Positions 2,983 to 29,841 of a DNA stretch of 30,974 nucleotides are shown piece by piece. Under the pieces are notes generated by a model, which searched no databases, was not told where the DNA came from, and saw only the letters and a program-made list of their open reading frames with translations. The translations under genes and the position numbers were made by a program. Within the stretch, counting starts at the first letter, position 1. Each line of letters begins with the position of its first letter. This stretch comes from Thermosulfurimonas dismutans (GTDB lineage: Bacteria; Desulfobacterota; Thermodesulfobacteria; Thermodesulfobacteriales; Thermodesulfobacteriaceae): NCBI RefSeq assembly GCF_001652585.1, contig NZ_LWLG01000021.1:1-30974 (forward strand), written 5' to 3'.

Positions 2983-3008
2983 TTGGACTTTCTCCAAACA
3001 TTCAAGTT

Positions 3009-7194: not shown

Positions 7195-7203
7195 ATTATA
7201 ACA
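7195..7203 (-). promoter_or_regulatory. Extended -10 promoter element (TGTTATAAT) for the giant secreted-protein gene
   Basis: The - strand reads ...gattttGTTATAATtatg, i.e. TGnTATAAT. It sits in a roughly 100-nt AT-rich intergenic region, about 90 nt upstream of the ATG at 7103. Confidence 0.45.
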
Positions 7204-7206
7204 AAA

Positions 7207-13575: not shown

Positions 13576-13580
13576 GTTCT

Positions 13581-14012: not shown

Positions 14013-14835
14013 CCTTCTCCTCCTCGGGAAAGACTACTTTAAGGCGTAAAGGCATACTCTCGTGCCCTGCCCCATCTAGGGCTTTTATATTATAAAGGAC
14101 TATTCTTTTTTTAAACCCATCCCGATCCCGAAACACATTTTTCTTAACCTTAAAAAACTCCCCCTCCCTTTCCACTATATAACCCACTACATCCCTTGAG
14201 GGACTGGGATCCCATACCAGAACCAGCGTATCTCCCTTCAAAAAATACCCTCCCCCCGAGGGGGGTAAAGGAGGCTCTTCATCATTTACCTCGACCTCAA
14301 GAGGTGGGGAAAAGGGACCGTAGATATCCGGGCCCAAAATTACGGCCGCCGAAATGAGATAAGTCTTCCCTAAAGAAAGTCCGCGTAAAGAATGAATTCC
14401 CGGAGAGATCGGACGAGGATTCAGAAAATCGGGTTTTCCCCCCTTTTCCCAGATAAAAAGGCCAAGTTTGGGAAAAAGACTCAGGACTTTGAGATCCAGA
14501 GCGTAGGAATCCATACGAAGGATTTTAAGGTGGGGATAAACCGGAGGAACCGACCTCACGCAGAGACGCCTTGACTTTCCTCCCCAAAGCACCTTCACGC
14601 ACTTTCCCTCCGGCTTAACCAACCATCCCCCGGACACCCTCTCAATCTCTTTCGCACCCTCAAAGCGGAAGGGCTCCCCACGTATCTCCTCAATAAAGAT
14701 CCGGGAACCAAACTGAACATAATAAATTTCAAAAGTCTTCTCGGGGGCATATATCGAAGGTCTCGGAGTACAACTCAAAAGAAAAATTGCAAAAACGAAA
14801 ATCAGTAAAAAATATCCTTTGAACCCTGGATTCAT
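13993..14835 (-). CDS. Lipoprotein of unknown function with a C-terminal FN3-like beta-sandwich, embedded in the T2SS operon
   Basis: Lipobox FAIFLLSC. The C-terminal segment GDTLVLVWDPSPSRDVVGYIVEREGEF resembles fibronectin type III. There is an ATGA overlap with gspF and a 20-nt overlap with gspG. Confidence 0.6.
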   Translation of the reverse strand: MNPGFKGYFLLIFVFAIFLLSCTPRPSIYAPEKTFEIYYVQFGSRIFIEEIRGEPFRFEGAKEIERVSGGWLVKPEGKCVKVLWGGKSRRLCVRSVPPVYPHLKILRMDSYALDLKVLSLFPKLGLFIWEKGGKPDFLNPRPISPGIHSLRGLSLGKTYLISAAVILGPDIYGPFSPPLEVEVNDEEPPLPPSGGGYFLKGDTLVLVWDPSPSRDVVGYIVEREGEFFKVKKNVFRDRDGFKKRIVLYNIKALDGAGHESMPLRLKVVFPEEEKDEKERK

Positions 14836-15845
14836 AATTTCACGGAGGAAGAGATTTCCATAATAGGCAAAATAACTGAAATTACTATATAAGCAACTAC
14901 TATACCTATAAAAAGAATAGTTAGAGGTTCAAGCCACTTTAGAGTCCGTTCAATGAGATAGTCCGCTTCCTTTATCATAATGTCGGAGGCGTTGTGTAAC
15001 ATTTCTGGCAAAGTTCCGGTTTCCTCCCCGATAGCAACCAGTTCTGAGAGAAATTCTGGGACGAACCCGTACCTCCGGAGATGTCTACTCAGGGATTGGC
15101 CCTCCTCCAGGAACTTAATTATCTCTTCCAGAGATTCCTTCACATAAAGATTCTGGCAACTATTACCTCCCGTAGCCACGGCTCTGGGAAGGACTACTCC
15201 GGACTCAAGAAGCAGCGCGGTGGTGTAACTCCACCTCGAAAGATCGAAGTAAAGCCAAATAGTCCCCACCACTGGTATTTTCAAGATGATCCGATGAATC
15301 TCATACCAGCCTTTTTTCTTAATCCACCACGCCCCGAAGACTAGGAAAATCGGAATCCCCAGCAAGAGAAACCACCACAGGAATTTAGCTCCCCAGAGGA
15401 GGACTTTGGTAAGAAAAGGCAAATCCCTTCCGAAACTAAGAAGGATCTTTCTCAACTTTGGAACGATGAATTCCAGAACCACTATCACTGATAAAAAACT
15501 GAACCCTATTACTAAAGCAGGATAAATAAGGGCTCCCGTAACCCGTGCCCGAAATTCCTCAATACGGGCAAGGAGATCCGAAGCCTTGGAGAATATTTTC
15601 TCAAGGCTTTCTCCGGTTTGAGCCGCGATCAACATTTCGCAGACAAATTCCGGGAAGAGTTTACTCTTGCTAAAAGCCCGTACCAGATCCTCGCCATCCT
15701 CTATACTTTTCTTTACTTCAAGAATCTTCTGAGAGGCCTCCGCTTTCTGGCGTGAGAGGAGTTCTAAAACTTTAGGTAAAGGAAGACCGCTTTTCAGGAG
15801 CACAGAAAGTTCCTTCAAAAGAAGATGGGACCGATAGGATTTCAT
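14832..15845 (-). CDS. gspF: T2SS inner-membrane platform protein GspF (short form, 337 aa)
   Basis: Two T2SS-F repeats (LSVLLKSGLPLPKVLELL... and LLLESGVVLPRAVATGG...). Three hydrophobic segments. Terminal ...ILPIMEI. ATGA overlap with gspE. Confidence 0.9.
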   Translation of the reverse strand: MKSYRSHLLLKELSVLLKSGLPLPKVLELLSRQKAEASQKILEVKKSIEDGEDLVRAFSKSKLFPEFVCEMLIAAQTGESLEKIFSKASDLLARIEEFRARVTGALIYPALVIGFSFLSVIVVLEFIVPKLRKILLSFGRDLPFLTKVLLWGAKFLWWFLLLGIPIFLVFGAWWIKKKGWYEIHRIILKIPVVGTIWLYFDLSRWSYTTALLLESGVVLPRAVATGGNSCQNLYVKESLEEIIKFLEEGQSLSRHLRRYGFVPEFLSELVAIGEETGTLPEMLHNASDIMIKEADYLIERTLKWLEPLTILFIGIVVAYIVISVILPIMEISSSVKL

Positions 15846-17305
15846 TCTTTGTCCGTGAGTGCCAGTAGCTCCGAGGAAGTAGTAAGACCGGCAAGGACCT
15901 TCTCTAGAGCATCCTGCCGCAAGATTTTGAACTTCCCCTTTAGAGCCTCATTACGAATTTCATTGGCATTTGGGGTGGTTAGAATTAAATTTTTTAATTT
16001 TTCATCCAACTCCAACACTTCAAAAATCCCAATTCGACCTTTATAGCCCGTTCCCAAACATTCATCACATCCCCTACCCCGGTAAAGTTCGCCATCAAAA
16101 TTCTCCGGAAGACCCAGAGCCTTCAATTCTTCCAGTGAGGGACGGTAGGGTTCACGACAGTGGGGACATATCCTTCGGACCAGGCGCTGAGCAATGACTC
16201 CCTCAAAAGAAGAAGCTATGAGGTAAGGCTCGATCCCCATGTCCACCAAGCGTGTTATGGCTGTGGGGGCATCGTTGGTGTGAAGAGTTGAGAGAACCAG
16301 ATGTCCGGTGAGGGCGGCGTGAATTGAAATCTCAGCGGTCTCGTTATCACGGATCTCTCCCACCAAAATAACATCTGGATCCTGGCGCAAAATGGAACGC
16401 AGACCCGCGGCGAAGGTAAGACCCACTTTGGGATTGACCTGTACCTGTCCCAGGCCACTCACCTGGTACTCCACCGGGTCCTCGATAGTAATGATGTTCT
16501 TGTGCGGATAAAGCTCGCGCACGAGAAGCAACATGGCATAGAGAGTGGTGGACTTTCCCGCACCCGTGGGACCAGTAGCTAGAATAAGACCATACGGTTT
16601 TTTGGCCAGTCGCACTATTTTGTGATAGTCTTCCTCAGAAAGCCCTAGTTCCTCAAGCATTAAAAGTCGATTACTTTTATCAAGTAATCTCAAGACAACC
16701 CTTTCTCCGAAAATAGTGGGGAGCACAGAAACACGAATATCGAGTTCCCTCTCGCCTATCTTTATGCGCATACGACCATCTTGGGGAACAAGCTTTTCGG
16801 CTACATTCAAATTAGACATAACCTTTATACGGGCAACAACCTGGGAATATATACGCATAGGGAACCGTTGATACTCGTGAAGAACTCCGTCGAGACGAAG
16901 CTTAATGAGGGCTTCCTTTTCTCCAGGATCAAAATGAATATCCGAAGCCCCTACACGAGAAGCCTTAATGAGCACACGATTTATAAGATTAACCACAGGA
17001 GCCTCAGAATAAACATTAAGGAGGTCGAGAGAACCCTTTTTTTCCCCCTCTTCACCCTCCTCGGAAAGACTAATCTCCTTGAGTTCCGAAAGCAGTCTTT
17101 CAAGTTTTTCCGAAAATTCCTCCAGACTAATCTTCCGTTTTTTGAAAGGTCTTTGGAGAAGAAACCTCACCTCCTCAATAGAATCCTTCGGAGTCTGCTC
17201 CGTAAAATAAAGACAAGGTTCCTCTCCATCCCATTCCAGAATAACCCGCCGTTTCTGAAAGTAAGAGCTACTCCAAGGAGTCAGCTTTTTTCGAGCTACA
17301 GGCAT
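15842..17305 (-). CDS. gspE: T2SS ATPase GspE
   Basis: Walker A GPTGAGKSTT. Asp box and Walker B ILVGEIRD. His box LTGHLVLSTLHTN. Tetracysteine CPHC...CDEC followed by GYKGRIGIFEV. Confidence 0.95.
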   Translation of the reverse strand: MPVARKKLTPWSSSYFQKRRVILEWDGEEPCLYFTEQTPKDSIEEVRFLLQRPFKKRKISLEEFSEKLERLLSELKEISLSEEGEEGEKKGSLDLLNVYSEAPVVNLINRVLIKASRVGASDIHFDPGEKEALIKLRLDGVLHEYQRFPMRIYSQVVARIKVMSNLNVAEKLVPQDGRMRIKIGERELDIRVSVLPTIFGERVVLRLLDKSNRLLMLEELGLSEEDYHKIVRLAKKPYGLILATGPTGAGKSTTLYAMLLLVRELYPHKNIITIEDPVEYQVSGLGQVQVNPKVGLTFAAGLRSILRQDPDVILVGEIRDNETAEISIHAALTGHLVLSTLHTNDAPTAITRLVDMGIEPYLIASSFEGVIAQRLVRRICPHCREPYRPSLEELKALGLPENFDGELYRGRGCDECLGTGYKGRIGIFEVLELDEKLKNLILTTPNANEIRNEALKGKFKILRQDALEKVLAGLTTSSELLALTDKE

Positions 17306-17320
17306 AATTAACTAGAATTT

Positions 17321-18505
17321 TCAACTTTTCATCTTCAATACCGCAATACCCGGGAGCTCCTTGCCCTCGAGGAACTCCAAAAAGGCTCCCCCTCCCGTGG
17401 AAAGGTAGGAGAAAGCGTGGATCACACCCGCTTTCCTTATAGCCGAAAGGGTGTCTCCGCCTCCAGCAAGAGTCAAGGCCGAACTCTCCGCTATGGCCCG
17501 AGCTATACCGACGGTACCCTTTGCAAAAGGAGGTTTTTCAAAAAGTCCAAGAGGCCCGTTCCAAACAATGGTTCCGGCCTCAGAAAGGGCTCCAGAAAAG
17601 AGTCTTACGGTCTCGGACCCAATATCATAGATAGCCGCCTCTGCCAGAACCTCCGATACCGAAACCTCCTGCATCCCCCTACCCTCCTCGTCCTCGGCCA
17701 CTACCGCGTCCACAGGGAGATAAACCTTTACTCCTCTTTCATCCGCTGAAAGCAGGATCTCCCTTGCGGTCTCTAGCTCGGAATCCTCAACCAACGACTT
17801 TCCGAGACTCAGGCCCTCGGCCGCAAGGAAAGTGTTGGCCATAGCCCCGCCAATGATCAGCTTGTCCACTTTGGAAATAAGGTTCCGTAAGACTTCGATT
17901 TTGCCAGAGATTTTGGCTCCACCTACAACGGCCACAAAGGGCTTTTCCGGGGCCTCAAGGGCCCTGGTGAGGTAATCTACCTCTCGTTTTAGCTGAAACC
18001 CGGCCGCAGCCGCCGGAACCCTTTCCGGAATTCCTACTACGGAGGCGTGCGCCCGGTGACTCACCGAAAAGGCGTCATTTACATAGACCTCGCATAGCCT
18101 AGCTAATGCCTCCGCAAATGCGGGATCGTTTTTAGTCTCCCCTTTGTGAAACCTCAAATTTTCAAGAAGCAAGATCTCCCCATGAGCAAGTTCTTCTACG
18201 GCCCTCTCCGCCACCTCTCCGATACAGTCTTCCGCAAAACGTACTGATTTTCCAAGTAGTTCTGATAGCTTTACGGCTACCGGTTTGAGGGAAAGCTCTG
18301 GAACCCGCTGGCCTTTCGGCCTACCAAGATGGGAACAAAGAATGATTCGTGCCCCTTTCTCCATTAGGTATTTTATAGTAGCCAAGCTTGCCCTTATGCG
18401 GGTATCGTCTACCACCTGCCCCTGAGAAAGGGGCACGTTATAGTCCACTCGTACAAGGACACGCCTTCCAGCAACTTCTATTTGGGAAAGATCTCTTATT
18501 CCCAT
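17321..18505 (-). CDS. pgk: Phosphoglycerate kinase
   Basis: RVLVRVDYNVPL, ILCSHLGRPKG, ENLRFHKGE, VNDAFSVSHRAHAS, STGGGAFLEFLEGK. Size is 394 aa. Confidence 0.95.
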   Translation of the reverse strand: MGIRDLSQIEVAGRRVLVRVDYNVPLSQGQVVDDTRIRASLATIKYLMEKGARIILCSHLGRPKGQRVPELSLKPVAVKLSELLGKSVRFAEDCIGEVAERAVEELAHGEILLLENLRFHKGETKNDPAFAEALARLCEVYVNDAFSVSHRAHASVVGIPERVPAAAAGFQLKREVDYLTRALEAPEKPFVAVVGGAKISGKIEVLRNLISKVDKLIIGGAMANTFLAAEGLSLGKSLVEDSELETAREILLSADERGVKVYLPVDAVVAEDEEGRGMQEVSVSEVLAEAAIYDIGSETVRLFSGALSEAGTIVWNGPLGLFEKPPFAKGTVGIARAIAESSALTLAGGGDTLSAIRKAGVIHAFSYLSTGGGAFLEFLEGKELPGIAVLKMKS

Positions 18506-18517: not shown

Positions 18518-19756
18518 TTAAAACATCTTCTCTGCAATATGAACCGTTAGATCACCCAGCATAGTCACGTAAGAACCAAATTCATTGTCATACCAGCCGT
18601 AAACCACCGCTTGAGTGATGGGAACTTCCACTTGGGCACAGGAAAGCCCCTTTACCTCTTCAGGGGTTATGCCCTTGCAGGCCTTGGATAGATCTACCCG
18701 GGCCAAAGCCGTGCGGGTATGGGTCTCGGCTCCCTCGATAATGGCCGCCGCCCGGGGGTAACCGATGATGTCTGTGGAGACGTTCTGCTCCAAGGTAAAG
18801 ACTAGGTAGGGCTTATACGGTCCCTCTGCAGCCTGACGATAAATCTCGTTTATGGTCTCCCGGGTTATACGGTTCTCAAGACTCTCGTCCTGGATGTTTA
18901 CCACCAGGACGATAAGGCTACCAGTGGTAGTGGGAATCCGTACGCTTTCTGCCATGAAACCTACACGCTTCATCTCCGGAATGACCAAGCCAAGGGCATC
19001 GGCCGCCCCAGTGGTGGTGAGGATGATATTGTTGAAGATACTTCTGGTCTTCCGCAGATCTTTGGCCCCGGACTTTGGGGGTTTATCGAGCACGGACTGG
19101 GAATTGGTAACCGCATGCACGGTCACCATCGAGGCCGAAAGGATACGGTCAGGTCCAAAGTGGTCTAGAAGGGGTTTTACCATGTAAGCCAAACAGGTAG
19201 TAGTGCAGGAAGCCGCAGAAATAACCCGATGCTTCTCAGGCCGATACGTCTCCTCGTTTATTCCATAGACCACGGTTACAGAGTCTTCGGGAAAGCCCTT
19301 CTCCTTATCTTTGAGTTTAAAAGGTGCCGAAAGGATGACCTTCTCCGCGCCGGCGGCCAGATGGCCCCTAAGCGCACCTTTAGGATCGTCAGGCTCGGCT
19401 TGGGGATTCCTAAAGACTCCTGTGGTATCCACCACCAGACGTACCCCCTCTTCCTTCCACTTGATATCCTTGGGGTTTCGGCTCTCGCGCAAAATCTTTA
19501 CCGGCACCCCATCTATGGTCATGGTGCCTTCCTTATCGTTCAGATTCTCGATTACCCGCCCGCCTTTATAACCATAGAGGTAATTAGAAAGCCGGCCATA
19601 GGTGCTATCCTTCTCAAGGTAAGAAGCTAGGTCCTCAAGGGACCTACCAATTTCACGGCCGGTATTTATCACGATTTCGGAAAAATATTTGCGGGCCACA
19701 TGATGCCACAAAGTGAGCTTTCCAATTCGTCCCAAACCATTGATCCCTAGTTTCAT
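18518..19756 (-). CDS. Long-form glyceraldehyde-3-phosphate dehydrogenase paralog (412 aa, with insertions)
   Basis: INGLGRIGK dinucleotide fold. Catalytic ASCTTTCLA and TVHAVTNSQ. C-terminal WYDNEFGY. It lacks the acidic residue after beta-2 (VINTGRE, versus AINDLTD in the neighbouring canonical gap). Confidence 0.8.
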   Translation of the reverse strand: MKLGINGLGRIGKLTLWHHVARKYFSEIVINTGREIGRSLEDLASYLEKDSTYGRLSNYLYGYKGGRVIENLNDKEGTMTIDGVPVKILRESRNPKDIKWKEEGVRLVVDTTGVFRNPQAEPDDPKGALRGHLAAGAEKVILSAPFKLKDKEKGFPEDSVTVVYGINEETYRPEKHRVISAASCTTTCLAYMVKPLLDHFGPDRILSASMVTVHAVTNSQSVLDKPPKSGAKDLRKTRSIFNNIILTTTGAADALGLVIPEMKRVGFMAESVRIPTTTGSLIVLVVNIQDESLENRITRETINEIYRQAAEGPYKPYLVFTLEQNVSTDIIGYPRAAAIIEGAETHTRTALARVDLSKACKGITPEEVKGLSCAQVEVPITQAVVYGWYDNEFGSYVTMLGDLTVHIAEKMF

Positions 19757-19782
19757 CTCCCCCTCCTTTCCTTAAAGTTTCA

Positions 19783-22700
19783 TTAACCGGGATAGAGCCC
19801 GGCTACTTCCCTTATGGGATGTTTACCTAAATATACGTTTCCCCTCAAGCCATCAATACTTATCCAGTCCCCAAGTCTCACGTAACGGCCATTAAAACGG
19901 GCCACCTTCTGATCTTCATCGATAATAAGATTCTCGCATCCCACCACACAAGTTTTGCCCAATCTTGAGGCTACAATGGCCGCATGGGAAGTCTGGCCTC
20001 CGCGGGCCGTGAGTAAACCATCAGCCTGACTGATCTCTTTGATGTCATCCGGCACGGTATCGTAACGTATCAGAATGAAGGGAGTCTCTGGGTCCTCCCG
20101 ACGAAGCCTTTCTATGTCCTCAAGGCTAAAAACCACCCTTCCTGAAAGGGCCCCTCCGGAAACCCCGATACCCTTTCCCAGAAAATATCTCTCAAGCTCC
20201 GCAACATTCTCAAAGATCCGGATACGGGGCCGCTCCTCCTGAGTAACCATGTCCCGCACCTGAAGAATATATAAATCTTCTTTATGCAATCCTTCAAAAG
20301 TAAACTCTATCTCCTGATGAGACCACTTCTTTTCGTAAACTAGATATTGAGCGATCTCAAAAAGGGCCCGATAGATTTCAGGAAAGGCCTCCTCAAGGGA
20401 AGGGCCCTCCCGGTTCTCTCGTTTCTTCTGCTCGATGGAAATAGGAAAGGTATTCACTAGTCCAGAAACGATGTCTTCCCCCTGGTTGCCAGGGGTATAA
20501 TCTCCCCAAAGTGCGATGCGGGAAAGTTTTCCGTATGGCGGAGCTGTAAAGACCACTCCGGTCCCGGAGTTGAGGCTCAGGTTTCCAAAAGTCATGGCCT
20601 GAACAATCACGGCTGTACCCCAGAAGTCGGAAATGCCCATAATTTCTCTATAAATCCGGGCTTTTCGGGCCTGCCACGAGGCAAAGATAAGTTCAAGGGA
20701 TCGAGCCAGTTGCTCCCAGGGATCATCTGGAATCTCTATACCGTGACTCTCGACCATCTTTCGGTAGAGGAGAGCCAGCTCCCGCATTTCCTCTCCAGAG
20801 AACTCCCGTTTCTTACGCACCCTGTAGAGCCTCTTGTGGGCCCGCATGAGCTGGTTAAAAAGTTCTCGGCCAAGGCCATGAGCCATAGCCCAACTCTGTA
20901 CAAAACGACGGTAGGTGTCCCAAGCAAACCAGAGATTGCCAGTCTTTTCCGCCAAGGCCTCTATAATCTCGGGATTGGAACCCAGATTGAGGATAGTGGA
21001 CATCATACCTGGCATGGAAATAGCCGCCCCGCTCCTTACCGAAAGAAGCAAGGGATTTTCCGGAGAACCAAACCTTTTCCCGGTATCCTTCTCAAGCCCC
21101 CGGATGCTTTCTTCAATACGAGCCAGAAGATCCTCCCTAGTTTCTCGATACTTGTAGATCACTGATTTGCAACGAAAGACCTCGGTAGTAATCACAAATC
21201 CCGGAGGCACACGGATACCCTCCTCCACCAGGAGGAGAAGATTATAGGCCTTATTACCCAGATGGATGAGATCTCGGGTCAAGGGGTTGGGATTTCTCAA
21301 ACAGCAAAGGGCCCGATCCGGGTCATAGCTCATAAGAAGATCTAGATCTCGTGGCTCAAGACGCTCTCTCTGCTTGAGGAGTATTTGATAGACCCTGGAA
21401 ACAAAGTTATCGAGGGACTGGAGGACAAAAGAAGAGGTCACCAGGTCCCGGGTAAAGTTTTCCGTAATTCGGTGAATGAACTCCTCCTCCGAAAGCCCTT
21501 GGGTACCTCGCCGATATAATGGAAGAAGGTGTTTTCGGCCGGTCTGTCTCAAAATGATGGAGAGATTCTCAAGATGGGGACTCACGTAGTAGGCCTTGAT
21601 GATGTGTTTGACCCCTTCAAGGAGACCTCGGAAAATGTCCAGATACTGGGTATAGGTAAAACGTCGCATCTCAAGCGAGGCCTCGAGGAGTTGGAGGTAA
21701 ATATCAAATTTTTTCGAAGAGATGCCCTCCACTTCCAGAGCCTTACGAAAAAGCTTCAAATACCTGAGGATCTTAAAGAAGGTCGCCCGGGTAATAAAGC
21801 GAGGATCGAAATTCTGGACTAATTCTTCGAAATAATTTCGGGCCAGGACCTCCAGTCGAAAAGTCAGCCCCAGGGCATCGAACTTCTTCTCGTGATAGCG
21901 GCCGTACATAGAAGGAATATCGGCCGCTATATGTCGCTTGAGATAAATGTCTTCCCTGGGCTCATATCTCTGCGGTGAAAGGATGATGTTTTTCAAATAC
22001 TCCAGATAGTCCAAGAGGGCCGAAAGACGGCTTTCAAGCCCCTCCTCCGAAAGAGCCGCAAGGAGCTCCTCTACCCCTTCAAAGCCCCAATATTTAGCCT
22101 GCAGGAGATACTCTCGAAGGTCTTCCGGGGAAAAACTGTATTTTTGATGTTCGAGTTTGTACATTTGGTAAAGTAGAAAGACTCGCCTCCTCTCCTTCTC
22201 ACTAGTCTTAACCCTAGCAAGGATCGCCTCCACTTCTTCGGAGGAATGCTCCAGGAGCTCATCGGGGCTCTTTATCCCCAGACTATCAAAAAGGGCTTTG
22301 GTGACCTCATGGGCCTTCTTAGTAAAGGGAGCTTTGGGATCAAGACTTTCCCAAAGACTTTTGGGAATAAAGGGTTTAAGGGGACGCTTATCTAGCGTCC
22401 GCCAGTAATCAAAAATAGCCGCGATGAAGTCTAAAATGAGGTTCGAACTCTCCACATGGCTTTGTTTCCGGAGAAAATGGATAAGGGGGTCCTTACGGTT
22501 ATAAATTTCGTCGATTTCAGTTGAAACGTCCCTCAATAGCCCTTCGGCACCGATCTCGTTGAAATAAACCGGAAGCAGCCTACAGAATTGCTTGACCAGA
22601 TGGTAAACAGGAGCAATATCGGCGTTAAGGAGCCGGGTAACGTCTTTTTGGAAAAGATCGGTGTCCCGAATACAAGTTCCAGCCAGTTTTAAATTAATGA

Positions 22701-23940
22701 TGAGAGCTGAAAGAAGAGTCACGCACCACTTGGGATTCTTCTCGAAAATTTCAAGCCAGACGCGTATGTTAAGAAGATGGGCCGGATTACAGAGAACGTG
22801 CCACTCCTGATCCACCCCTTTGATTTCTGGATATTGGAACCCGAACTTGACCACCTCTTCCACAAAGATCTCAGCTAAATGTGGATCTTCCCTCTCCAGA
22901 ATCTCAAACCCCAGGTTCTTGATACACTGAAGAGCAGTCCAGGGGAAAAGCCTGACCTTCTCTTTAAGAAGTTCAAAAGTTTTATAGATCAGACGATCGA
23001 GATTCTCGGGGGGCTCTTTTCTTATCACGGCCACTAGGGCCCGGTTGATCTCCCTCAGGACTTCCTCGTGGATAAGGGATAAAGCCGGGTTTTCAGCCAT
23101 TTTAAATAGAAAGAGGAGCTTGAGATCCTCAAGATTTCCCTTCTTAGAAGAAAGGGCCTCTAGTTTTTCTGGAACTTCCCTAAAGCTGCGTATCAGTTCC
23201 AGATGATCCGGAAGTTTGAGTAGATCTTCCAGTTTAGGAGAACTCATGCTCTTTAAGGTCTTGAGATAAGAGCGCAGGGTTCTTGCAGAAACCGGCTTAA
23301 TAATATCCACATAGCCAGGGACCTCGACAAACCATTTCTCAGGATCCGAGGCCGAAAGCCAGGCCTTGTAGGTAAGAAAAAGACTTTTCTTCACGAGGTC
23401 CACCAGGGATCCGGGAGGAGGGAGTGGACTCTTGAGGAAATACCTTTCAGCCAAACGCTTGAAGGAATGATAGCTCTCAAGAAAGACCAGCAACCGATCC
23501 TCTGGAAGTCCGGAAAGGGCCCGGAAAACCTCTTCGAAAACCGGAAGATAACGCGGCCAATCCTTTTTCTCTAAGCTCTCGAAGGCCTTTTCTAGAACCG
23601 AGAAAATCCCCTCCCCAGCCTGAAGCCAAAGTTCCCTCTTCTTGTCTCCAAGGCCAAGGAAAAAGAGATCCATAATGGCCCAGAGGGCTTGAGGACCTTT
23701 CTCACGGGGGGCCAGCACTCGAAAATTCTTGAGGGCAAAGGAACGAAGGTCGGAAAGAACCAGTCTCAGATTGCGATAGGGATGATAGGCCTCGCGCAGA
23801 AGTTCTTCGGCCTGTTTCTCAAGGCCCCGGTAACCCGAGACCGCCTCCACCAAAACTAAGTGCTGTTCATCAAGCCTGATCTCCGTAACGGCCGTCTCGG
23901 CCAGATTGGCAAGCAGGGCCTTGGAGGTGAAGGCCGGCAT
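19783..23940 (-). CDS. PPDK-like dikinase-family protein: about 880-aa unrecognised helical N-terminal region + PPDK ATP-grasp (nucleotide-binding) domain + phosphohistidine swivel domain; no PEP/pyruvate TIM-barrel domain
   Basis: From about aa 890: HLGNKAYNLLLLVEEGIRVPPGFVITTEVF, NPLLLSVRSGAAISMPGMMSTILNLG, FAWDTYRRFVQ, GTAVIVQAMTFGN, SGTGVVFT, GNQGEDIVSG, ILIRYDTVPDDI, LLTARGGQTSHAAIVASRLGKTCVVG (His codon at 19984-19986), ISIDGLRGNVYLG. A stop follows 18 codons later. The next gene starts 27 nt downstream with a strong SD. Confidence 0.8.
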   Translation of the reverse strand: MPAFTSKALLANLAETAVTEIRLDEQHLVLVEAVSGYRGLEKQAEELLREAYHPYRNLRLVLSDLRSFALKNFRVLAPREKGPQALWAIMDLFFLGLGDKKRELWLQAGEGIFSVLEKAFESLEKKDWPRYLPVFEEVFRALSGLPEDRLLVFLESYHSFKRLAERYFLKSPLPPPGSLVDLVKKSLFLTYKAWLSASDPEKWFVEVPGYVDIIKPVSARTLRSYLKTLKSMSSPKLEDLLKLPDHLELIRSFREVPEKLEALSSKKGNLEDLKLLFLFKMAENPALSLIHEEVLREINRALVAVIRKEPPENLDRLIYKTFELLKEKVRLFPWTALQCIKNLGFEILEREDPHLAEIFVEEVVKFGFQYPEIKGVDQEWHVLCNPAHLLNIRVWLEIFEKNPKWCVTLLSALIINLKLAGTCIRDTDLFQKDVTRLLNADIAPVYHLVKQFCRLLPVYFNEIGAEGLLRDVSTEIDEIYNRKDPLIHFLRKQSHVESSNLILDFIAAIFDYWRTLDKRPLKPFIPKSLWESLDPKAPFTKKAHEVTKALFDSLGIKSPDELLEHSSEEVEAILARVKTSEKERRRVFLLYQMYKLEHQKYSFSPEDLREYLLQAKYWGFEGVEELLAALSEEGLESRLSALLDYLEYLKNIILSPQRYEPREDIYLKRHIAADIPSMYGRYHEKKFDALGLTFRLEVLARNYFEELVQNFDPRFITRATFFKILRYLKLFRKALEVEGISSKKFDIYLQLLEASLEMRRFTYTQYLDIFRGLLEGVKHIIKAYYVSPHLENLSIILRQTGRKHLLPLYRRGTQGLSEEEFIHRITENFTRDLVTSSFVLQSLDNFVSRVYQILLKQRERLEPRDLDLLMSYDPDRALCCLRNPNPLTRDLIHLGNKAYNLLLLVEEGIRVPPGFVITTEVFRCKSVIYKYRETREDLLARIEESIRGLEKDTGKRFGSPENPLLLSVRSGAAISMPGMMSTILNLGSNPEIIEALAEKTGNLWFAWDTYRRFVQSWAMAHGLGRELFNQLMRAHKRLYRVRKKREFSGEEMRELALLYRKMVESHGIEIPDDPWEQLARSLELIFASWQARKARIYREIMGISDFWGTAVIVQAMTFGNLSLNSGTGVVFTAPPYGKLSRIALWGDYTPGNQGEDIVSGLVNTFPISIEQKKRENREGPSLEEAFPEIYRALFEIAQYLVYEKKWSHQEIEFTFEGLHKEDLYILQVRDMVTQEERPRIRIFENVAELERYFLGKGIGVSGGALSGRVVFSLEDIERLRREDPETPFILIRYDTVPDDIKEISQADGLLTARGGQTSHAAIVASRLGKTCVVGCENLIIDEDQKVARFNGRYVRLGDWISIDGLRGNVYLGKHPIREVAGLYPG

Positions 23941-23950: not shown

Positions 23951-24979
<1,029 letters not shown>

Positions 24980-24988: not shown

Positions 24989-25017
24989 ATGGTAAGTTTT
25001 CAAGCCTCTCAAGTCAA
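24989..25017 (-). promoter_or_regulatory. Putative sigma-70 promoter upstream of gap (TTGACT-17 nt-TACCAT)
   Basis: The - strand reads ccTTGACTtgagaggcttgaaaactTACCATgtaaac..., about 30 nt upstream of SD GGGAGGG and the ATG at 24955. The -35 element overlaps the rimI stop. Confidence 0.35.
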
Positions 25018-25461
25018 GGAAAGCCCCATAAGAAGGGCATCCTCTCCGGTATCCGAGTAATAGCGGGGTCTTCGCCCCTCAAACTTAAAACCCAAACTCT
25101 GGTATAACCGTATGGCGGCCAGATTTCTCTCTCGAACCTCAAGGAGAGCCCTTTTCGCTCCGTAGCGCTTGGCCGTCTCAAGGGCAACTTCAAGGAGCTT
25201 CTTCCCCAATCCCTTTTGGCGATAATCCCTTCTGACAGCAAGATTGGCCAGATGCATCTCATCGGCTATCACCCAGAAACATATGTAACCCAGAATCTCG
25301 CTGGCTTCTTCTATAACCAGAAATACGCCATTTTTCTTTTCAAATTCCTTGAGAAAGGCCTCTTTACTCCAAGGAGTGGGAAAAGACTCCTTCTCAATGG
25401 CGAGAATTTGAGGGAGATCCGAGGACCTAGCCCTTCGTATCCTGATATCTTCAATCCTCAA
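25009..25461 (-). CDS. rimI: GNAT N-acetyltransferase, RimI-like (ribosomal-protein-alanine acetyltransferase)
   Basis: ILAIEKESFPTPWSKEAFLKEF and the acetyl-CoA motif RRDYRQKGLGKKLLE. Size is 150 aa. The apparent start is TTG. Confidence 0.7.
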   Translation of the reverse strand: MRIEDIRIRRARSSDLPQILAIEKESFPTPWSKEAFLKEFEKKNGVFLVIEEASEILGYICFWVIADEMHLANLAVRRDYRQKGLGKKLLEVALETAKRYGAKRALLEVRERNLAAIRLYQSLGFKFEGRRPRYYSDTGEDALLMGLSLT

Positions 25462-25846
25462 GGAGAGCAGAGGACTTCACGATGGCCTTCTTCCCGGCTT
25501 CGGTCACCAACGCAGCCAGTTCCGCCGGAGGAAGTTCTCGATGCTGAAAGGCCTTGATGAGCATGGGAAGATTTACTCCAGAAACCACCTCCACCTTTCC
25601 CTTTTCAAGAAAAATCAGCCCAAAATTAGAGGGGGTGCCTCCGAAAAGATCCGTGAGGATAAGGACCCCTTGTCCTCGGTCGGCGCGAGAGAGGGTTTCT
25701 TTGATACGATCTCGAATCCTTTCCGGAGACTCGGAAGGATCAATATCCAAGGGAAAAATCCCTTCGCTGTCTTCAAGGATGAAAGCCGCCACTTTAACCA
25801 ATTCCCGCGCCAAATTACCGTGAGCGATAACCACTATACCGGTCAT
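25451..25846 (-). CDS. PTS EIIA component, mannose/fructose (EIIA-Man) family
   Basis: MTGIVVIAHGNLARELVKVAAFI...GVLILTDLFGGTPSN. I prefer the ATG at 25846 (SD GAGGGA, 7 nt after the rapZ stop) over the track's TTG at 25876. Confidence 0.8.
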   Translation of the reverse strand: MTGIVVIAHGNLARELVKVAAFILEDSEGIFPLDIDPSESPERIRDRIKETLSRADRGQGVLILTDLFGGTPSNFGLIFLEKGKVEVVSGVNLPMLIKAFQHRELPPAELAALVTEAGKKAIVKSSALLED

Positions 25847-25853
25847 AATTCCC

Positions 25854-26735
25854 TCAGACACTAGAGTCTTTTTCAAGATCTCGATGAGTAACCAGGATAT
25901 GCCTCCCAGCCGCCTTCAATCTTTCGGCTAGGGCCTCCGTAATGGCCACCGATCGGTGTCGCCCACCGGTGCATCCCAAGGCCACCACCACATACCCCCT
26001 TCCTTCTTTTTCATAATACGGAAAGACAAAATTTAAAAGCCCCGAAAGATCATCCAAGAACCTACGGGCCTCCTCGCTACTCAAGACATATTGCTTTATC
26101 CGACCATCCAGGCCAGAAAGCGCTTTTAATTCGGGAACAAAATAGGGATTGGGAAGGAATCGGAGATCAAAGACAAAATGGGCCTCAGCAGGAAGACCGT
26201 ATTTAAACCCGAAAGAAAGGAGGTGGATAGTAGGCAAACGCAATCTTTCCCGGGAACCATATCTTCTTAGAATCTCGCTTCGCAATTGATAAAGGTTGAA
26301 ATTCGAAGTGTCTATAACTGTAGTAGCCATTTCTTTTAAAGAGGCCAGGAGATCCGCCTCCTTGAGGATGGCCTCCCTTAAAGGAATGTCTTTGCCTAGA
26401 GGATGAGGCCTCCGCGTCTGACTGTAACGATAGATAAGGATTTCCAGCGAGGCTGTAAGAAAAAGGATTTCTAGGTAATACCCTCTTTCCCGAACCTTCT
26501 TAAAAATGGGCTCGAAGTTCTCAATAAAATCCTCCCCCCGTACATCCATCACCAGAGCAAGCTTCTGAGGACCTTCCCGCTCTTTGATTTCAAGCAAGGG
26601 CAAAAGTAGGGAAACCGGCAGATTGTCTACGCAAAAGTATCCTAGATCCTCAAAGGCCTTGAGAGCCGTGCTCTTCCCAGAGCCCGAAAGACCGGTAATA
26701 ACAACTATTTCGAGATCTTTAAAATTCCCGATCAA
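25854..26735 (-). CDS. rapZ: RNase adapter / nucleotide-binding protein RapZ (YhbJ family)
   Basis: VVITGLSGSGKSTALKAFEDLGYFCVDNLP, FLPNPYFVPELK, ALGCTGGRHRSV. The apparent start is TTG. Confidence 0.9.
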   Translation of the reverse strand: MIGNFKDLEIVVITGLSGSGKSTALKAFEDLGYFCVDNLPVSLLLPLLEIKEREGPQKLALVMDVRGEDFIENFEPIFKKVRERGYYLEILFLTASLEILIYRYSQTRRPHPLGKDIPLREAILKEADLLASLKEMATTVIDTSNFNLYQLRSEILRRYGSRERLRLPTIHLLSFGFKYGLPAEAHFVFDLRFLPNPYFVPELKALSGLDGRIKQYVLSSEEARRFLDDLSGLLNFVFPYYEKEGRGYVVVALGCTGGRHRSVAITEALAERLKAAGRHILVTHRDLEKDSSV

Positions 26736-27177
26736 AATGAACGATAACCTCGAGGATTTCTTTCTTATCCCGGGCCGAAAGGATGGCCTCTCGAAAGGCC
26801 TTCTCCCGTAACATACGGGCTAAATTTGATAAACAGCGAAGATAAGCTGAGGTCTCCCTCTCCGGGGCCAGGACCGTAAAAATAATCTTAACAGGCTGAC
26901 CATCTGGAGCCTCAAAATCTATACCTTTTAGAATGCGGGCTGCGCCAATATATATCCTGGAAAGGAGGGGGAGACGGGCATGGGGAAGGGCTACCCCCTC
27001 CCCCATGGCGGTGGACCCCATCTTTTCCCTCTCTACCAGAGCGGCTTCGATCTTCTCCGGTTTAAGACCGGTTTCCTCAGCTAGAAATAGGCTAAGGTCT
27101 TTCAAAACTTGCCATTTATCGGAAACTTTAATCTCTTCAAGTACACATTTTTCAGCGATAAGAGGACGTATACGCAC
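26719..27177 (-). CDS. ptsN: Nitrogen-PTS EIIA (PtsN, EIIA-Ntr)
   Basis: EIIA type-2 fold with the phosphorylation-site context GSTAMGEGVALPHARL. GTG start. Position is between hpf and rapZ, as in Proteobacteria. Confidence 0.85.
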   Translation of the reverse strand: MRIRPLIAEKCVLEEIKVSDKWQVLKDLSLFLAEETGLKPEKIEAALVEREKMGSTAMGEGVALPHARLPLLSRIYIGAARILKGIDFEAPDGQPVKIIFTVLAPERETSAYLRCLSNLARMLREKAFREAILSARDKKEILEVIVHFDREF

Positions 27178-27183
27178 CGAAAC

Positions 27184-27696
27184 CTACTCCGGAATACAGA
27201 GGATAATCCTTTCTCCTTCCCTGGTAAGGGCACAGATCTTGTCCCCTTCATCCGGATTGATAAAGAGAAAAACCGGACGCTCAACCTTGGAAAATTGCTC
27301 TAGAGCCTCCTCCACGGACATAGGCTTAAGGGAAACTCTCTCAACTTGGATTTCAGGCTGAACCAGCTCGCCAGAACTTTCAATGCTTATACTACGCCGA
27401 CCTTTTTTGTTAATGCCTTTCCTCTTTTCCCGGAATCTTTTGATCTGTTTCTCCAAGATATCAGAAACCAGGTCAATAGCCTCGTACATATCTCCGGTTT
27501 CTTCTTTGGCTGTGACATCCAATCCGTCCCCTCTCAAGATTACCTCAACCTCGTTCCTAAGTTTTTCAGCCTTAAGGATCACCTGGGCCTCAACCGGACC
27601 TTCGAAGTACTTCTCTAAGCGCCCGATCTTCTTGCGCACGTACTCCTTAAGACCTTCAGAAGAATCCAGGTGTCTAAAAGTAATATTGATCTGCAT
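27184..27696 (-). CDS. hpf: Ribosome hibernation promoting factor, long form
   Basis: MQINITFRHLDSSEGLKEYVRKKIGRLEKYF... plus a C-terminal extension of about 60 aa (...PMSVEEALEQF...). SD AGGAGG. Confidence 0.9.
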   Translation of the reverse strand: MQINITFRHLDSSEGLKEYVRKKIGRLEKYFEGPVEAQVILKAEKLRNEVEVILRGDGLDVTAKEETGDMYEAIDLVSDILEKQIKRFREKRKGINKKGRRSISIESSGELVQPEIQVERVSLKPMSVEEALEQFSKVERPVFLFINPDEGDKICALTREGERIILCIPE

Positions 27697-27707
27697 ATCA
27701 ACCTCCT

Positions 27708-29096
27708 TCAGGAGAATTTCTTGCGACTACGGGCTGAAGGATACCCCAAAGCCTCTCGATACTTGGCCACCGTCCTTCGAGCTATTTTGACTTTATATTT
27801 AGTCTCCAGCAGTTTGGCAAGTTCTTGATCGGTGTAAGGACGTCGCGGATCTTCTGAAGCTATCAAATCCTTCAGATACTCCTTGACGGTCTGAGAGGAA
27901 ACCTCTCCAGAGGACCCCTTCACCCCGGAGGGAAAGAAAAATTTAAGTTCATATAGTCCATGAGGCGTTTCGGCGTATTTATTATGGGTAACCCGGCTCA
28001 CAGTAGATTCATGCACACCGATCCTTTCGGCCACATCCTTTAAGGTTAAAGGCCTAAGATAGGCTGGCCCTTTCTCCAGGAATTCTCCCTGAAGTTCCGC
28101 CAAGACCTCAGCCACCCTGAGAAGGGTCTTTCCCCTTTGATCAAGACTTTTCATGAGCCATTCCGCCGAACGGAGCTTCTCTCGAATAAACATCTTGGCC
28201 TTACGGGGAATGAAGGGATCCGAAAGGAGATTCCTGTAATAGCTGTTGAGTTTGAGCCGTGGAAGGCCCTCTTCGTAAAGGCGGGCTCGCCAGCGATTCC
28301 CTTCCTTGTAGAAGATCACATCTGGTTCCACATAAAGCGTCCTTTCCGTAGAAAAGGCCCTTCCGGGATAGGGTTCAAGACCGCGGATAACCTCAAGGGC
28401 TCGGCTAATTTCTTCTTCGGAAATGCCGAATTTTTTGGCCAGATACGTTTCTCCTTTGGGCACTTCTTTAAGATAGTCTCTCACTATCTCCGCAGGCAAA
28501 GAGTCCTCTGGGTATCCTAGATAGTGGAGCTGTGCCAGAAGACATTCCTCAAGAGAAAGAGAACCTATTCCCACAGGATCAAAAAACTTAAGGCGCTCCC
28601 TCACCTCCTCCACCAAAGAAAGAGAAACATTTAGATCCCGGGATACCTCCTCCGGAGAAATGGTAAGATAGCCCCTTTCGTCTAGATTCCGAATGATGTA
28701 TTCAGCCACCGTCTTTTCTTCTTCCGAAAAGCCTGCGAGAGCTAGTTGCCAGAGTAAATGTTCACATAGCCCTTCTTCTTTCCTTACTCGACCCTCCCAG
28801 TAGATAGGCTCCTTCTCTTCAAAGGCAAAGGGAGGATAAGGAGAAGGTTCTTCTTCTACCAAAGTTTCCCACAGATCGGTTTCTTCAACATTTTTTTCTT
28901 CTTTCAAACTCTCTTCTATGGAGAAGTTTCCATCCGGGTTTTCAAGCTCAAGCAGGGGATTGCTTTCCAGTTCCGTCCGTAAATATTCCATAAGTTCTAA
29001 GCGGTTTAACTGAAGTAACTTCAGGGCCTGCCTCAATTGAGGGGTCAGTATAAGTTCCGGCCGGAGCTTGAGCTGGGTCTTCAGTTCCAGAGCCAC
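27708..29096 (-). CDS. rpoN: RNA polymerase sigma-54 factor RpoN
   Basis: Region I LKLRPELILTPQLRQALKLLQLNRLEL. HTH TLKDVAERIGVHESTVSRV. RpoN box ARRTVAKYREALG. The start is reassigned to GTG at 29096 (SD GAGGAGG, 10 nt after the lptB stop) in place of the track start at 29180. Confidence 0.9.
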   Translation of the reverse strand: MALELKTQLKLRPELILTPQLRQALKLLQLNRLELMEYLRTELESNPLLELENPDGNFSIEESLKEEKNVEETDLWETLVEEEPSPYPPFAFEEKEPIYWEGRVRKEEGLCEHLLWQLALAGFSEEEKTVAEYIIRNLDERGYLTISPEEVSRDLNVSLSLVEEVRERLKFFDPVGIGSLSLEECLLAQLHYLGYPEDSLPAEIVRDYLKEVPKGETYLAKKFGISEEEISRALEVIRGLEPYPGRAFSTERTLYVEPDVIFYKEGNRWRARLYEEGLPRLKLNSYYRNLLSDPFIPRKAKMFIREKLRSAEWLMKSLDQRGKTLLRVAEVLAELQGEFLEKGPAYLRPLTLKDVAERIGVHESTVSRVTHNKYAETPHGLYELKFFFPSGVKGSSGEVSSQTVKEYLKDLIASEDPRRPYTDQELAKLLETKYKVKIARRTVAKYREALGYPSARSRKKFS

Positions 29097-29106
29097 GGCT
29101 TCCTCC

Positions 29107-29841
29107 TCAGATGGTAAAATCTTCGCCGAGATAGAGAGTTCGAGCCCGTTCGTTCCGTACGATCTCTTCCGGAGGACCACTCGCGATGATTTGCCCGCCA
29201 GCTACAATGTAGGCCCGGTCACAGACCGCAAGGGTCTCTCTTACATTGTGATCTGAAATGAGAAGCCCCAAGCCCTTCTCTTTGAGCCTTTTAAGGGTGA
29301 CTTTAAGATCCGCCACGGCCAAAGGATCTATCCCAGCAAAAGGCTCGTCGAGCAGGAGAAACCGTGGTTCGGTAGCTAGGGCCCGCATGATCTCCACCCG
29401 TCGTCTCTCTCCTCCGGAAAGAGAGTATCCTTTCTGTTTACGCAGGTGTTCTACCGAAAGAAGAGATAGAAGTTCCTCTAATTTCTCCTGAGCCTCTTTG
29501 AGACTCTTTCCGGTTTCCTCAAGGACCAATCTAACATTTTCCTCCACCGTAAGGCGTCTAAAGATAGAAGGTTCCTGGGGAAGATAAACCAGTCCCGCCC
29601 GGGCTCTCTGATAGACCGGAAGTCTAGTAATATCTTGTTCTTCCAACAGGACTTGGCCATCATCCGGCCTAAGGAAACCGGCTATCATATAAAAAGTAGT
29701 GGTCTTGCCCGCGCCATTAGGTCCAAGAAGCCCCACTATCTCTCCGGCCTGAATTTCAAGGTCTACTCCCTTGACCACTTCCCGCTTCTTAAATTTTTTA
29801 CGGAGCCTTTGGGCCCTAAGTCTAGTCCTCGGTATAGACAT
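29107..29841 (-). CDS. lptB: LPS export ABC transporter ATPase LptB
   Basis: Walker A GPNGAGKTT. Signature LSGGERRRVEIMRAL. Walker B FLLLDEPFAGIDP. Position is between lptA and rpoN. Confidence 0.9.
   Translation of the reverse strand: MSIPRTRLRAQRLRKKFKKREVVKGVDLEIQAGEIVGLLGPNGAGKTTTFYMIAGFLRPDDGQVLLEEQDITRLPVYQRARAGLVYLPQEPSIFRRLTVEENVRLVLEETGKSLKEAQEKLEELLSLLSVEHLRKQKGYSLSGGERRRVEIMRALATEPRFLLLDEPFAGIDPLAVADLKVTLKRLKEKGLGLLISDHNVRETLAVCDRAYIVAGGQIIASGPPEEIVRNERARTLYLGEDFTI

Follow-up and report, generated by a model that had tools for sequence, protein, structure and literature searches.

A predicted PPDK-derived dikinase with an all-α N-terminal domain, encoded next to a long GAPDH in Thermosulfurimonas dismutans and other bacteria

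The 30,974-nucleotide (nt) stretch of the Thermosulfurimonas dismutans genome that was analyzed here (contig NZ_LWLG01000021.1, positions 1 to 30,974; hereafter referred to as the window) contains a gene, designated X, whose product joins the ATP-grasp and phosphohistidine swivel domains of pyruvate phosphate dikinase (PPDK) to a long N-terminal region that is specific for its own family. This gene lies between the genes for two different glyceraldehyde-3-phosphate dehydrogenases (GAPDHs), a canonical enzyme (GAP1) and a longer one (GAP2), and is followed, after the latter, by the gene for phosphoglycerate kinase (PGK). Judging from its sequence, X is very likely to be an active phosphohistidine dikinase that descended from PPDK and employs a new acceptor module, and it is probably coupled functionally to GAPDH (GAP2). 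The X family is large, uncharacterized, and partly misannotated.

Domain architecture of X

Pfam searches with the X protein retrieved PPDK_N (PF01326; residues 894 to 1175, E value of 3e-27) and the mobile domain of the phosphoenolpyruvate (PEP) utilizers (PF00391; residues 1287 to 1367, E value of 7e-19), and no match to PEP-utilizers_C (PF02896) was found in a scan of the whole protein at E values of ≤0.01. This is the outcome predicted in the initial annotation of this DNA, made from the letters alone, which had assigned residues ∼890 to 1385 to the ATP-grasp and swivel domains of PPDK; both Pfam and the alignment to PPDK structures agree with that assignment. Residues 894 to 1378 of X align to residues 18 to 513 of the PPDK from Clostridium symbiosum (E value of ∼1e-78, ∼32% identity), with the swivel domain aligned to the PPDK segment TARGGMTSHAAVVA. 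When read on the 1DIK structure, X ends at what we take to be the start of the linker into the TIM barrel of PPDK. The best-matching NCBIfam model is likewise that of PPDK, TIGR01828, aligned over profile positions 18 to 335 and the His region, with a score of 384.6 bits against an equivalog cutoff of 843.45. The models for pyruvate, water dikinase (PpsA) score 70 to 81 bits (the best one, NF005057, 81) against cutoffs of 598 to 740 and match only residues 1202 to 1338.

An alignment of 56 full-length family members, with identities down to 28%, shows that K897, R969, G978, E1210, E1212, Q1227, and R1229 of the ATP-grasp domain are invariant, and so are T1311, G1314, G1315, S1318, H1319, and A1320 of the His domain. 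The former set presumably corresponds to K22, R92, G101, D321/E323, Q335, and R337 of the C. symbiosum enzyme. With these residues retained, the first two partial reactions of PPDK can be expected to take place in X as well.

The open reading frame (ORF) delimited in the initial annotation was recovered together with all the motifs quoted there, which map in the translation to residues 967 to 987 (SVRSGAAISMPGMMSTILNLG), 1108 to 1120 (GTAVIVQAMTFGN), 1151 to 1160 (GNQGEDIVSG), 1311 to 1324 (TARGGQTSHAAIVA), and 1363 to 1372 (DGLRGNVYLG); His1319 is encoded by the codon at positions 19984 to 19986. Some details had to be revised. X is encoded on the minus strand. The stop codon, described as located 18 codons after the swivel domain, is indeed 18 residues past the Pfam swivel domain but 13 residues past the VYLG motif, and the spacer to the next gene, given as 27 nt, is 26 nt when read directly after the TAA. 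The genes are tightly packed on the other sides, too, as the GAP1 stop codon is 10 nt ahead of the X ATG and the GAP2-PGK gap is 12 nt in the window. The decay of orthologs into pseudogenes, which the initial annotation had named as evidence that would count against it, was not seen: the X frame is intact in 81 of the 81 complete homologous loci. Two loci from metagenome-assembled genomes that appeared to carry a pseudogene, or an in-frame stop that might encode selenocysteine, were discounted: in L067, the alignment had overrun the natural stop, and L077, with the same pattern, was judged by that pattern alone.

The N-terminal 885 amino acid residues (aa) contain 16.6% Leu, 9.8% Glu, and 7.3% Lys; this composition and the AlphaFold2 (AF2) prediction both bear out their earlier description as a Leu/Glu/Lys-rich, helical region. 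Residues 1 to 885 did not match any Pfam family, PF02896 included, even at E values of ≤10, and a profile built from six diverse N-terminal domains did not match any PDB sequence at the same threshold. The AF2 model of this domain, calculated from a 53-sequence alignment (predicted local distance difference test score [pLDDT] of 84, predicted template modeling score [pTM] of 0.68), consists of 46 helices and a single β-hairpin at residues 662 to 683. Comparison of the model against the PDB with Foldseek retrieved only generic α-solenoids, such as CRM1, importin-β, the A subunit of PP2A, and FANCI, with TM scores of ≤0.2 and 10 to 14% identity. The fold of the N-terminal domain can be confidently predicted to be a HEAT-like all-α solenoid. 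A hidden or permuted TIM barrel in this region was ruled out by the permissive Pfam scan, the PDB profile search, and the all-α model; the structural check proposed in the initial annotation came out with no TIM barrel, so the option considered there, that X is a circularly permuted ordinary PPDK, does not apply.

Sequence conservation in the N-terminal domain is concentrated in two blocks (Table 1). Invariant positions include F368, W380, H388, D426, D428, G464, E466, G467, R470, D477, D484, R491, K492, and H495 in block 1 and E663, K668, R669, H670, P676, S677, Y679, G680, Y682, and E684 in block 2; H53, K600, Y601, R831, and D844 are invariant elsewhere in the domain. In all, the two blocks contain ∼25 residues (polar, aromatic, Gly, or Pro) that stay invariant even among family members with only 28% identity, and the mean column identity in residues 401 to 500 and 651 to 700 is 0.62 to 0.72, versus 0.5 to 0.66 in the catalytic half. 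Block 2 largely coincides with the β-hairpin, whose predicted strands (residues 662 to 669 and 676 to 683) are connected by a flexible tip; loops 377 to 380 and 461 to 465 and the hairpin tip, residues 666 to 680, all have pLDDT values below 50. Loops of this kind, invariant, charged, and apparently flexible, are more suggestive of a catalytic or ligand-binding site than of a passive scaffold.

A second AF2 model, covering residues 186 to 1385 (pLDDT of 85.3, pTM of 0.71), includes the C-terminal domains. Its C-terminal half fits the C. symbiosum PPDK structures 1KBL and 1DIK at 3.6 to 4.0 Å over ∼540 columns and fits 2R82 and the maize PPDK, which we take to be the conformers with the His domain facing the TIM barrel, at 12 to 14 Å. 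The close fit to the first pair and the poor fit to the second indicate that the model has its His domain in the position docked to the ATP-grasp domain. Loops 461 to 464 and 666 to 680 gained no confidence in this model, whereas loop 377 to 380 was no longer below 50.

Table 1. Gene X, its predicted domains, and the adjacent genes (window coordinates)
Feature	Coordinates	Strand	Evidence
Gene X, PPDK-derived dikinase (predicted) with novel N-terminal domain	19783..23940	minus	ORF list and translation; ATG start, 1385 aa
N-terminal domain, residues 1-885, all-α solenoid (predicted), proposed acceptor/partner-binding module	21286..23940	minus	AF2, Foldseek, Pfam
Conserved block 1, residues 366-501 (FGFQ, NPxHLxNIRxW, DTDLFQKD, NEIGAEG, HFLRKQSHVESSNL)	22438..22845	minus	56-member alignment
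Conserved block 2, residues 662-697 (EDIYxKRHIAxDIPSMYGRYxExKFDALG)	21850..21957	minus	56-member alignment and AF2 hairpin
PPDK-type ATP-grasp nucleotide-binding domain, residues 894-1230	20251..21261	minus	PF01326, TIGR01828, PPDK structure alignment
Phosphohistidine swivel domain, residues 1254-1372, catalytic His1319 in GGQTSHAA	19825..20181	minus	PF00391
X-GAP2 spacer, 26 nt, strong Shine-Dalgarno sequence AAGGAAAGGAGGGGG	19757..19782	minus	Sequence read directly
GAP1, canonical type I GAPDH, 334 aa, NDL motif with Asp32, directly upstream of X	23951..24955	minus	TIGR01534
GAP2, long GAPDH, 412 aa, conserved partner of X	18518..19756	minus	Gp_dh_N and Gp_dh_C, TIGR01534
PGK, last gene of the gap1-X-gap2-pgk run	17321..18505	minus	PF00162, E value of 3e-154

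Distribution and gene neighborhoods of the X family

A word-indexed search with the N-terminal domain found at least 2840 proteins, nearly all of them 1380 to 1440 aa long and containing both PF01326 and PF00391. An exhaustive search of 50%-identity representatives yielded 543 clusters, with full-length members of 1335 to 1450 aa extending to ∼30% identity, and a scan of one genome per species yielded at least 570 X loci. These loci come from the Thermodesulfobacteria and the Desulfobulbia, including the Electrothrix cable bacteria, Desulfobulbus, Desulfurivibrio, and Desulfarculaceae, and the distant clusters are named from Cloacimonadota, Nitrospirota, and Myxococcota. The architecture of X is fixed across Thermodesulfobacteriota, Cloacimonadota, Nitrospirota, and Myxococcota, and no other catalytic partner of the N-terminal domain was observed among the family members found. 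The sole departure from this architecture, an additional hemerythrin (HHE) domain at the N terminus, occurs in two clusters, represented by P0293/P0164 (1540 aa; positions 6001 to 10623 of locus L088) and P0154 (1455 aa), and hints at O2, redox, or iron sensing.

In the source databases, members of this family are named “PEP/pyruvate-binding domain-containing protein,” “phosphoenolpyruvate synthase,” or “pyruvate, orthophosphate dikinase.” Nothing on the X architecture turned up in the literature searched, and an already characterized family with this architecture, the existence of which the initial annotation had allowed for, was not found there. The T. dismutans genome paper assigns GAPDH to TDIS_2022 and TDIS_2024, PGK to TDIS_2021, and PEP synthase to TDIS_0764, whereas TDIS_2023, which lies between the two gap genes, goes unmentioned (PMC4911364). 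These assignments imply the same gap-X-gap-pgk arrangement, with X overlooked. Given that TDIS_0764 is annotated as a canonical PEP synthase distinct from X (PMC4911364), X is not the PEP synthase of this cell.

The database names, as well as the gluconeogenic gene context, would fit an ordinary PpsA or PPDK, with its PEP/pyruvate domain permuted or supplied in trans, or else a truncated PPDK in decay. That X is any of these is highly improbable. Even at E values of ≤10 there is no PEP-utilizers_C domain, and the N-terminal 885 residues are confidently all-α, which leaves no place for a permuted one; no TIM-barrel gene was seen to recur beside X in the neighborhoods sampled, which speaks against one acting in trans. 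Decay is contradicted by the fixed length and architecture of the family and its uniformly intact frames. Moreover, the whole-protein scores (385 bits versus 843 for PPDK, 81 versus 598 for PpsA) and the presence of a dedicated PEP synthase in T. dismutans argue against either enzyme.

The gene neighborhoods of X were compared in 92 loci, 61 of which included both flanks, with 75 loci having enough upstream sequence and 70 used for the downstream count. A GAPDH gene on the same strand is directly adjacent to X in 36 of the 61 loci with both flanks. The upstream GAPDH is nearly always of the canonical type, with a canonical gap gene immediately preceding X in 31 of 75 loci, and in Desulfobulbia this is often the conserved neighbor. 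The GAPDH encoded directly downstream of X (17 of 70 loci) is always of the long type. Only 11 of 61 loci encode PGK in the 3.5 kb that follow X, and PGK is not found beside X either in the Caldimicrobium-like loci, where the gene order is rapZ-rimI-gap1-X-gap2-nusB, or in the distant lineages sampled; it was therefore rejected as an obligatory partner. Thus, the conservation of the neighborhood, which the initial annotation had proposed to check, holds for GAPDH, kept in both related and distant genomes, but not for PGK. In the distant lineages, in which X is only 30 to 35% identical, a GAPDH of 381 to 424 aa is encoded directly after X in 6 of the 8 lineages sampled (L084, from Cloacimonadota, and L086, L087, L089, L090, and L091), and all other neighbors differ. 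These distant GAPDHs are 42 to 59% identical to GAP2, compared to 30 to 35% identity to GAP1, and share the insertions of GAP2.

GAP1 scores 430 bits on TIGR01534, above the cutoff of this model, and the divergent GAP2 scores 342.6 bits, below the cutoff of 367.2. GAP2 retains the SAASCTTTCL motif with the catalytic Cys, the VHAVT motif with the His, and the TGAA, VRIPT, and WYDNE motifs, and the retained SCTT, TGAA, and equivalents of R195 and R231 presumably represent both phosphate sites of GAPDH. The NAD-specifying Asp32 is gone (NDL is replaced by NTG), which suggests a changed NAD/NADP preference. In addition, GAP2 carries 4 or 5 insertions specific for its subfamily, among them a conserved E-T-H-T-R-T segment and a loop of ∼25 to 33 residues before WYDNE. 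Proteins of this kind are ∼381 to 430 aa long, have the signature WYDNE-x-G-S-Y, and are named GAPDH in all source annotations; they appear to form a distinct, uncharacterized subfamily.

The association was also assessed from the GAP2 side, in a sample of 120 metagenome stretches (L099 to L218) retrieved with a DNA pattern for WYDNE-x-G-S-Y and without the use of X. The GAP2 type accounted for 115 of the 120 stretches. Where at least 900 nt of upstream sequence was available, X was found directly upstream and on the same strand in 37 of 60 GAP2 genes and as an immediate neighbor in convergent or divergent orientation in six more, for a total of 43 of 60 (72%). The X-GAP2 pair therefore outlasts changes of phylum, of the other neighbors, and of orientation, which is strong evidence of a functional link. 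The GAP2 genes without a neighboring X are mostly found in gap2-rimI-pgk operons. This location beside pgk argues for a working GAPDH, and, with its catalytic motifs retained, GAP2 probably handles 1,3-bisphosphoglycerate (1,3-BPG). The gap2-rimI-pgk loci that lack X may come from the genomes of those Desulfobulbaceae in which X is monocistronic; no GAP2 homologs labeled Desulfobulbaceae were among the matches listed (the best 120).

The operon of gap2, a gene for an acetyltransferase of the GNAT family, and pgk is recurrent (L113, L115, L135, L163, L200, L203, L205, L213, and L217). In the window, a gene for the same small GNAT protein is located just upstream of gap1 (positions 25009 to 25461), and its product matches the RimI model TIGR01575 with 129.6 bits (cutoff, 86.4). 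Genes for gap and pgk are thus found time and again together with one for a RimI-like acetyltransferase. A proteomic study of Dissulfuribacter thermophilus places the GAPDH DITHS69_1283 in the top 20 proteins by abundance in cells that disproportionate thiosulfate (PMC13490349). This organism encodes a GAP2-type protein, P0435.

In the Desulfobulbaceae loci L081 to L083, which belong to the clade with a monocistronic X, the region upstream of X contains pairs of divergent genes for an HD-GYP-type phosphohydrolase and a HEAT_2-like protein (∼600 aa), and nadA is found downstream of X on the opposite strand. The regions of the window described next are all on the minus strand. The region upstream of the gap cluster (positions 25451 to 30821) encodes lptC-lptA-lptB-rpoN-hpf-ptsN(EIIA-Ntr)-rapZ, followed by an EIIA-Man-type protein and RimI. 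A functional tie between X and the genes of the Ntr branch of the phosphotransferase system (PTS), namely, ptsN, rapZ, and EIIA-Man, was considered and rejected: this synteny is seen only in the closer, Thermodesulfobacteriota-type loci and is absent in distant lineages, so it probably reflects inherited gene order rather than function. Directly after pgk, positions 7207 to 17305 harbor a complete-looking type II secretion or pilus-like cluster that encodes the GspE ATPase, GspF, the GspG pseudopilin, additional N-methyl pseudopilins, proteins of the GspK-like and PDZ types, and a secretin; X, too, is followed by a GspE gene in Desulfurivibrio-type loci. Downstream of this cluster, positions 1234 to 7193 encode a protein of 1394 aa that contains Big_9, PKD, and Ig-like repeats and then a 565-aa peptidase of the clostripain family (C11), both of which are plausible secreted cargo or cell surface proteins. 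At the window edge (positions 302 to 958), there is an ORF with the rve integrase core and HTH_21 domains, a fragment of an IS3-type transposase. Finally, the defense-protein models of PADLOC matched neither X nor GAP2, and an anti-phage role for X was dropped.

Predicted reaction and possible acceptors

The explanation that best accounts for these observations as a whole, still a tentative one, is that X is a functional dikinase that passes the phosphoryl group of its phosphohistidine to an acceptor at the GAPDH step. By homology with PPDK, the ATP-grasp domain would pyrophosphorylate His1319 from ATP, with AMP leaving the enzyme. The terminal phosphate would then be taken off either by Pi, which would produce pyrophosphate (PPi), as in PPDK, or, less likely, by water, which would produce Pi, as in PpsA; the PPDK-type step is favored because the similarity of X to PPDK is much stronger than that to PpsA. 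His1319 would then hold the β-phosphate, and the swivel domain, tethered by its N-terminal linker alone, would swing from the ATP-grasp domain to the all-α N-terminal domain. The conservation pattern suggests that a second active site is formed there by blocks 366 to 501 and 662 to 697 on their flexible loops, with D426/D428, E466, R470, D477, D484, R491/K492/H495, and K668/R669/H670/S677/Y679/Y682/E684 as its candidate residues, and that the phosphoryl group is passed to the acceptor at this site. From the gene context, this acceptor would belong to the GAPDH step.

The preferred version of this reaction is reversible, 3-phosphoglycerate (3-PG) + ATP + Pi ↔ 1,3-BPG + AMP + PPi, which would make X the dikinase counterpart of PGK, with the labile acyl phosphate exchanged directly with GAP2 held on the solenoid. 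The standard free energies are approximately −49 kJ/mol for 1,3-BPG and −46 kJ/mol for the conversion of ATP to AMP and PPi. From these values, the reaction can be estimated to run at approximately −4 kJ/mol toward ATP and hence to be freely reversible. The assignment of 3-PG/1,3-BPG as the acceptor is possible but rather doubtful. The same degree of doubt applies to the wider proposal that X and the long GAPDH constitute a hitherto unrecognized step in central carbon metabolism, in which a PPi/AMP-linked “3-phosphoglycerate, phosphate dikinase” would interconvert 3-PG and 1,3-BPG and channel the acyl phosphate to or from the solenoid-bound GAPDH.

Several points weigh against the 3-PG dikinase reading. 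The acceptor is assigned from the gene neighborhood only, and PGK is encoded in the same operon here, so that there is no obvious need for another route to 1,3-BPG. An adjacent GAPDH gene is absent at one Nitrospirota locus and in one hemerythrin-fused lineage (L088), and in a large clade of Desulfobulbaceae X is monocistronic with no GAPDH gene nearby. The AF2 model of residues 186 to 1385, in which the C-terminal domains are included, does not predict the docking of His1319 on the loops of the N-terminal domain. Finally, HEAT-like solenoids typically bind proteins, not small molecules, which keeps the option of an enzyme as the acceptor as alive as that of a small molecule.

If the acceptor is an enzyme, X would be a protein-directed dikinase or regulator that transfers the phosphoryl group from His1319 to a GAPDH residue (in GAP2 or, for Desulfobulbia, in the canonical GAPDH) or to H670, S677, or Y679 of its own hairpin. 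Such phosphorylation would switch the activity or direction of GAPDH according to the energy or redox state, with the solenoid as the docking platform. This role is unlikely, even though it would agree with the use of α-solenoids as classic protein-binding scaffolds and with the adjacency of X to either type of GAPDH. The conserved GAP2-specific insertions would also fit, as the E-T-H-T-R-T segment is rich in phosphorylatable residues, and so would the fusion of X in two sublineages with hemerythrin, a typical O2, redox, or iron sensor; furthermore, the homologous His domain of PTS enzyme I offers a precedent in that it phosphorylates a protein, HPr. However, ∼25 invariant residues in two blocks that are conserved above the level of the catalytic domains exceed what a docking surface usually needs, the expense of converting ATP to AMP would be unusual for a regulatory phosphorylation, and many Desulfobulbaceae carry X without an adjacent GAPDH gene.

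A further alternative keeps the small-molecule acceptor and assigns X and GAP2 to another substrate pair: X would make the acyl phosphate of some other carboxylate, either phosphorylated or plain, which the GAPDH-like enzyme would reduce to the aldehyde, or the two would work in reverse. The pairing of a kinase with a Cys-dependent acyl-phosphate reductase is a recurrent design, seen in ProB/ProA, ArgB/ArgC, and Ask/Asd, and such a pair would define a new side pathway. This option is quite unlikely. It would explain why GAP2 falls under the TIGR01534 cutoff, lacks Asp32, and has 4 or 5 insertions, as well as why it is found in a window where a canonical GAPDH and PGK are already available for the standard reactions. 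Nevertheless, GAP2 retains the catalytic Cys and His motifs and presumably both phosphate sites, and away from X it is found with pgk, which points to ordinary glyceraldehyde 3-phosphate (GAP)/1,3-BPG chemistry.

The trunk of glycolysis and gluconeogenesis is usually considered to be fully cataloged, and X would be a widespread enzyme that has been overlooked right beside it. Its hosts include sulfate reducers, sulfur disproportionators, cable bacteria, Cloacimonadota, and Nitrospirota, and metabolic reconstructions of such organisms either miscount X as an enzyme that converts pyruvate to PEP or skip it, as happened with TDIS_2023. The identity of the acceptor would reveal either a new energy coupling at the 3-PG/1,3-BPG/GAP node, which would be relevant to the recycling of PPi and AMP in sulfur-cycling anaerobes, or a new kind of control of GAPDH; with either outcome, a new domain family would be defined and thousands of annotations would be corrected. 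Should X prove to be the 3-PG dikinase, then in the oxidative direction it would produce ATP straight from AMP and PPi, both of which are by-products of sulfate activation, and would raise the glycolytic ATP yield of anaerobes with a PPi economy. In the reductive direction, it would provide energy-limited autotrophs with a strongly driven entry into gluconeogenesis.

Comparison with known dikinases and related systems

Of the known systems, the closest one is PPDK (EC 2.7.9.1; TIGR01828; structures 1DIK and 1KBL), which has homologous ATP-grasp and swivel domains in the same order, with the same linker and the GGxTSHAA motif. However, PPDK continues into the C-terminal PEP/pyruvate TIM barrel (PF02896), whereas X stops at the second linker, at the position equivalent to PPDK residue 513, and, unlike PPDK, has the family-specific all-α region of ∼885 aa ahead of its ATP-grasp domain. 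With this domain composition, X cannot be expected to bind its acceptor the way PPDK binds pyruvate, and catalysis of the conversion of pyruvate to PEP is considered unlikely. PpsA likewise starts with these two modules and follows the same swivel logic; it differs in the possession of a TIM barrel, and the similarity of X to it is confined to the His-domain region, at 70 to 81 bits.

Dikinases in which the acceptor module has been swapped are known, with rifampin phosphotransferase (RPH) and glucan water dikinase (GWD) as the precedents. RPH and the PigC/RedH proteins resemble X in that they keep the ATP-grasp domain and the His swivel, have an exchanged acceptor module, and carry the His domain at the C-terminal end. 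The domain order in RPH is ATP-grasp, substrate domain, and His domain, and in X it is the new domain, ATP-grasp, and His domain. X scores 36.7 bits on the RPH model NF041857 against a cutoff of 999 and 18 to 21 bits on the PigC/RedH models against 1300 to 1350. Foldseek aligns only the shared ATP-grasp and His parts of X and RPH (E value of ∼4e-5), and in the search against the PDB the N-terminal domain of X did not match the substrate domain of RPH. GWD and PWD are dikinases, too, and transfer the β-phosphate of ATP through a phosphohistidine to an acceptor other than pyruvate, with acceptor recognition modules in their N-terminal parts. In GWD, these are carbohydrate-binding modules of the CBM45 and CBM20 families, and the His domain precedes the ATP-grasp domain; Pfam did not detect any carbohydrate-binding module in X.

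PTS enzyme I shares with X the homologous mobile His domain, from which, in enzyme I, the phosphate is handed to a protein. Enzyme I is charged by PEP through a TIM barrel, lacks an ATP-grasp domain, and has a dedicated HPr-binding subdomain; X scores 15.4 bits against a cutoff of 341.7 on its model, TIGR01417, with only the His domain aligned. The resemblance of residues 1 to 885 to the HEAT/ARM solenoids, such as CRM1, importin-β, and the A subunit of PP2A, consists in the overall helical-repeat architecture and is generic, with no match to any sequence family. In addition, unlike these scaffolds, X contains invariant charged loops and a β-hairpin. By its sequence, X is a swiveling phosphohistidine dikinase in the broad sense that belongs outside the RPH, PigC, GWD, and enzyme I families, and what is new in it are the putative acceptor module, the domain order, and the partner enzyme.

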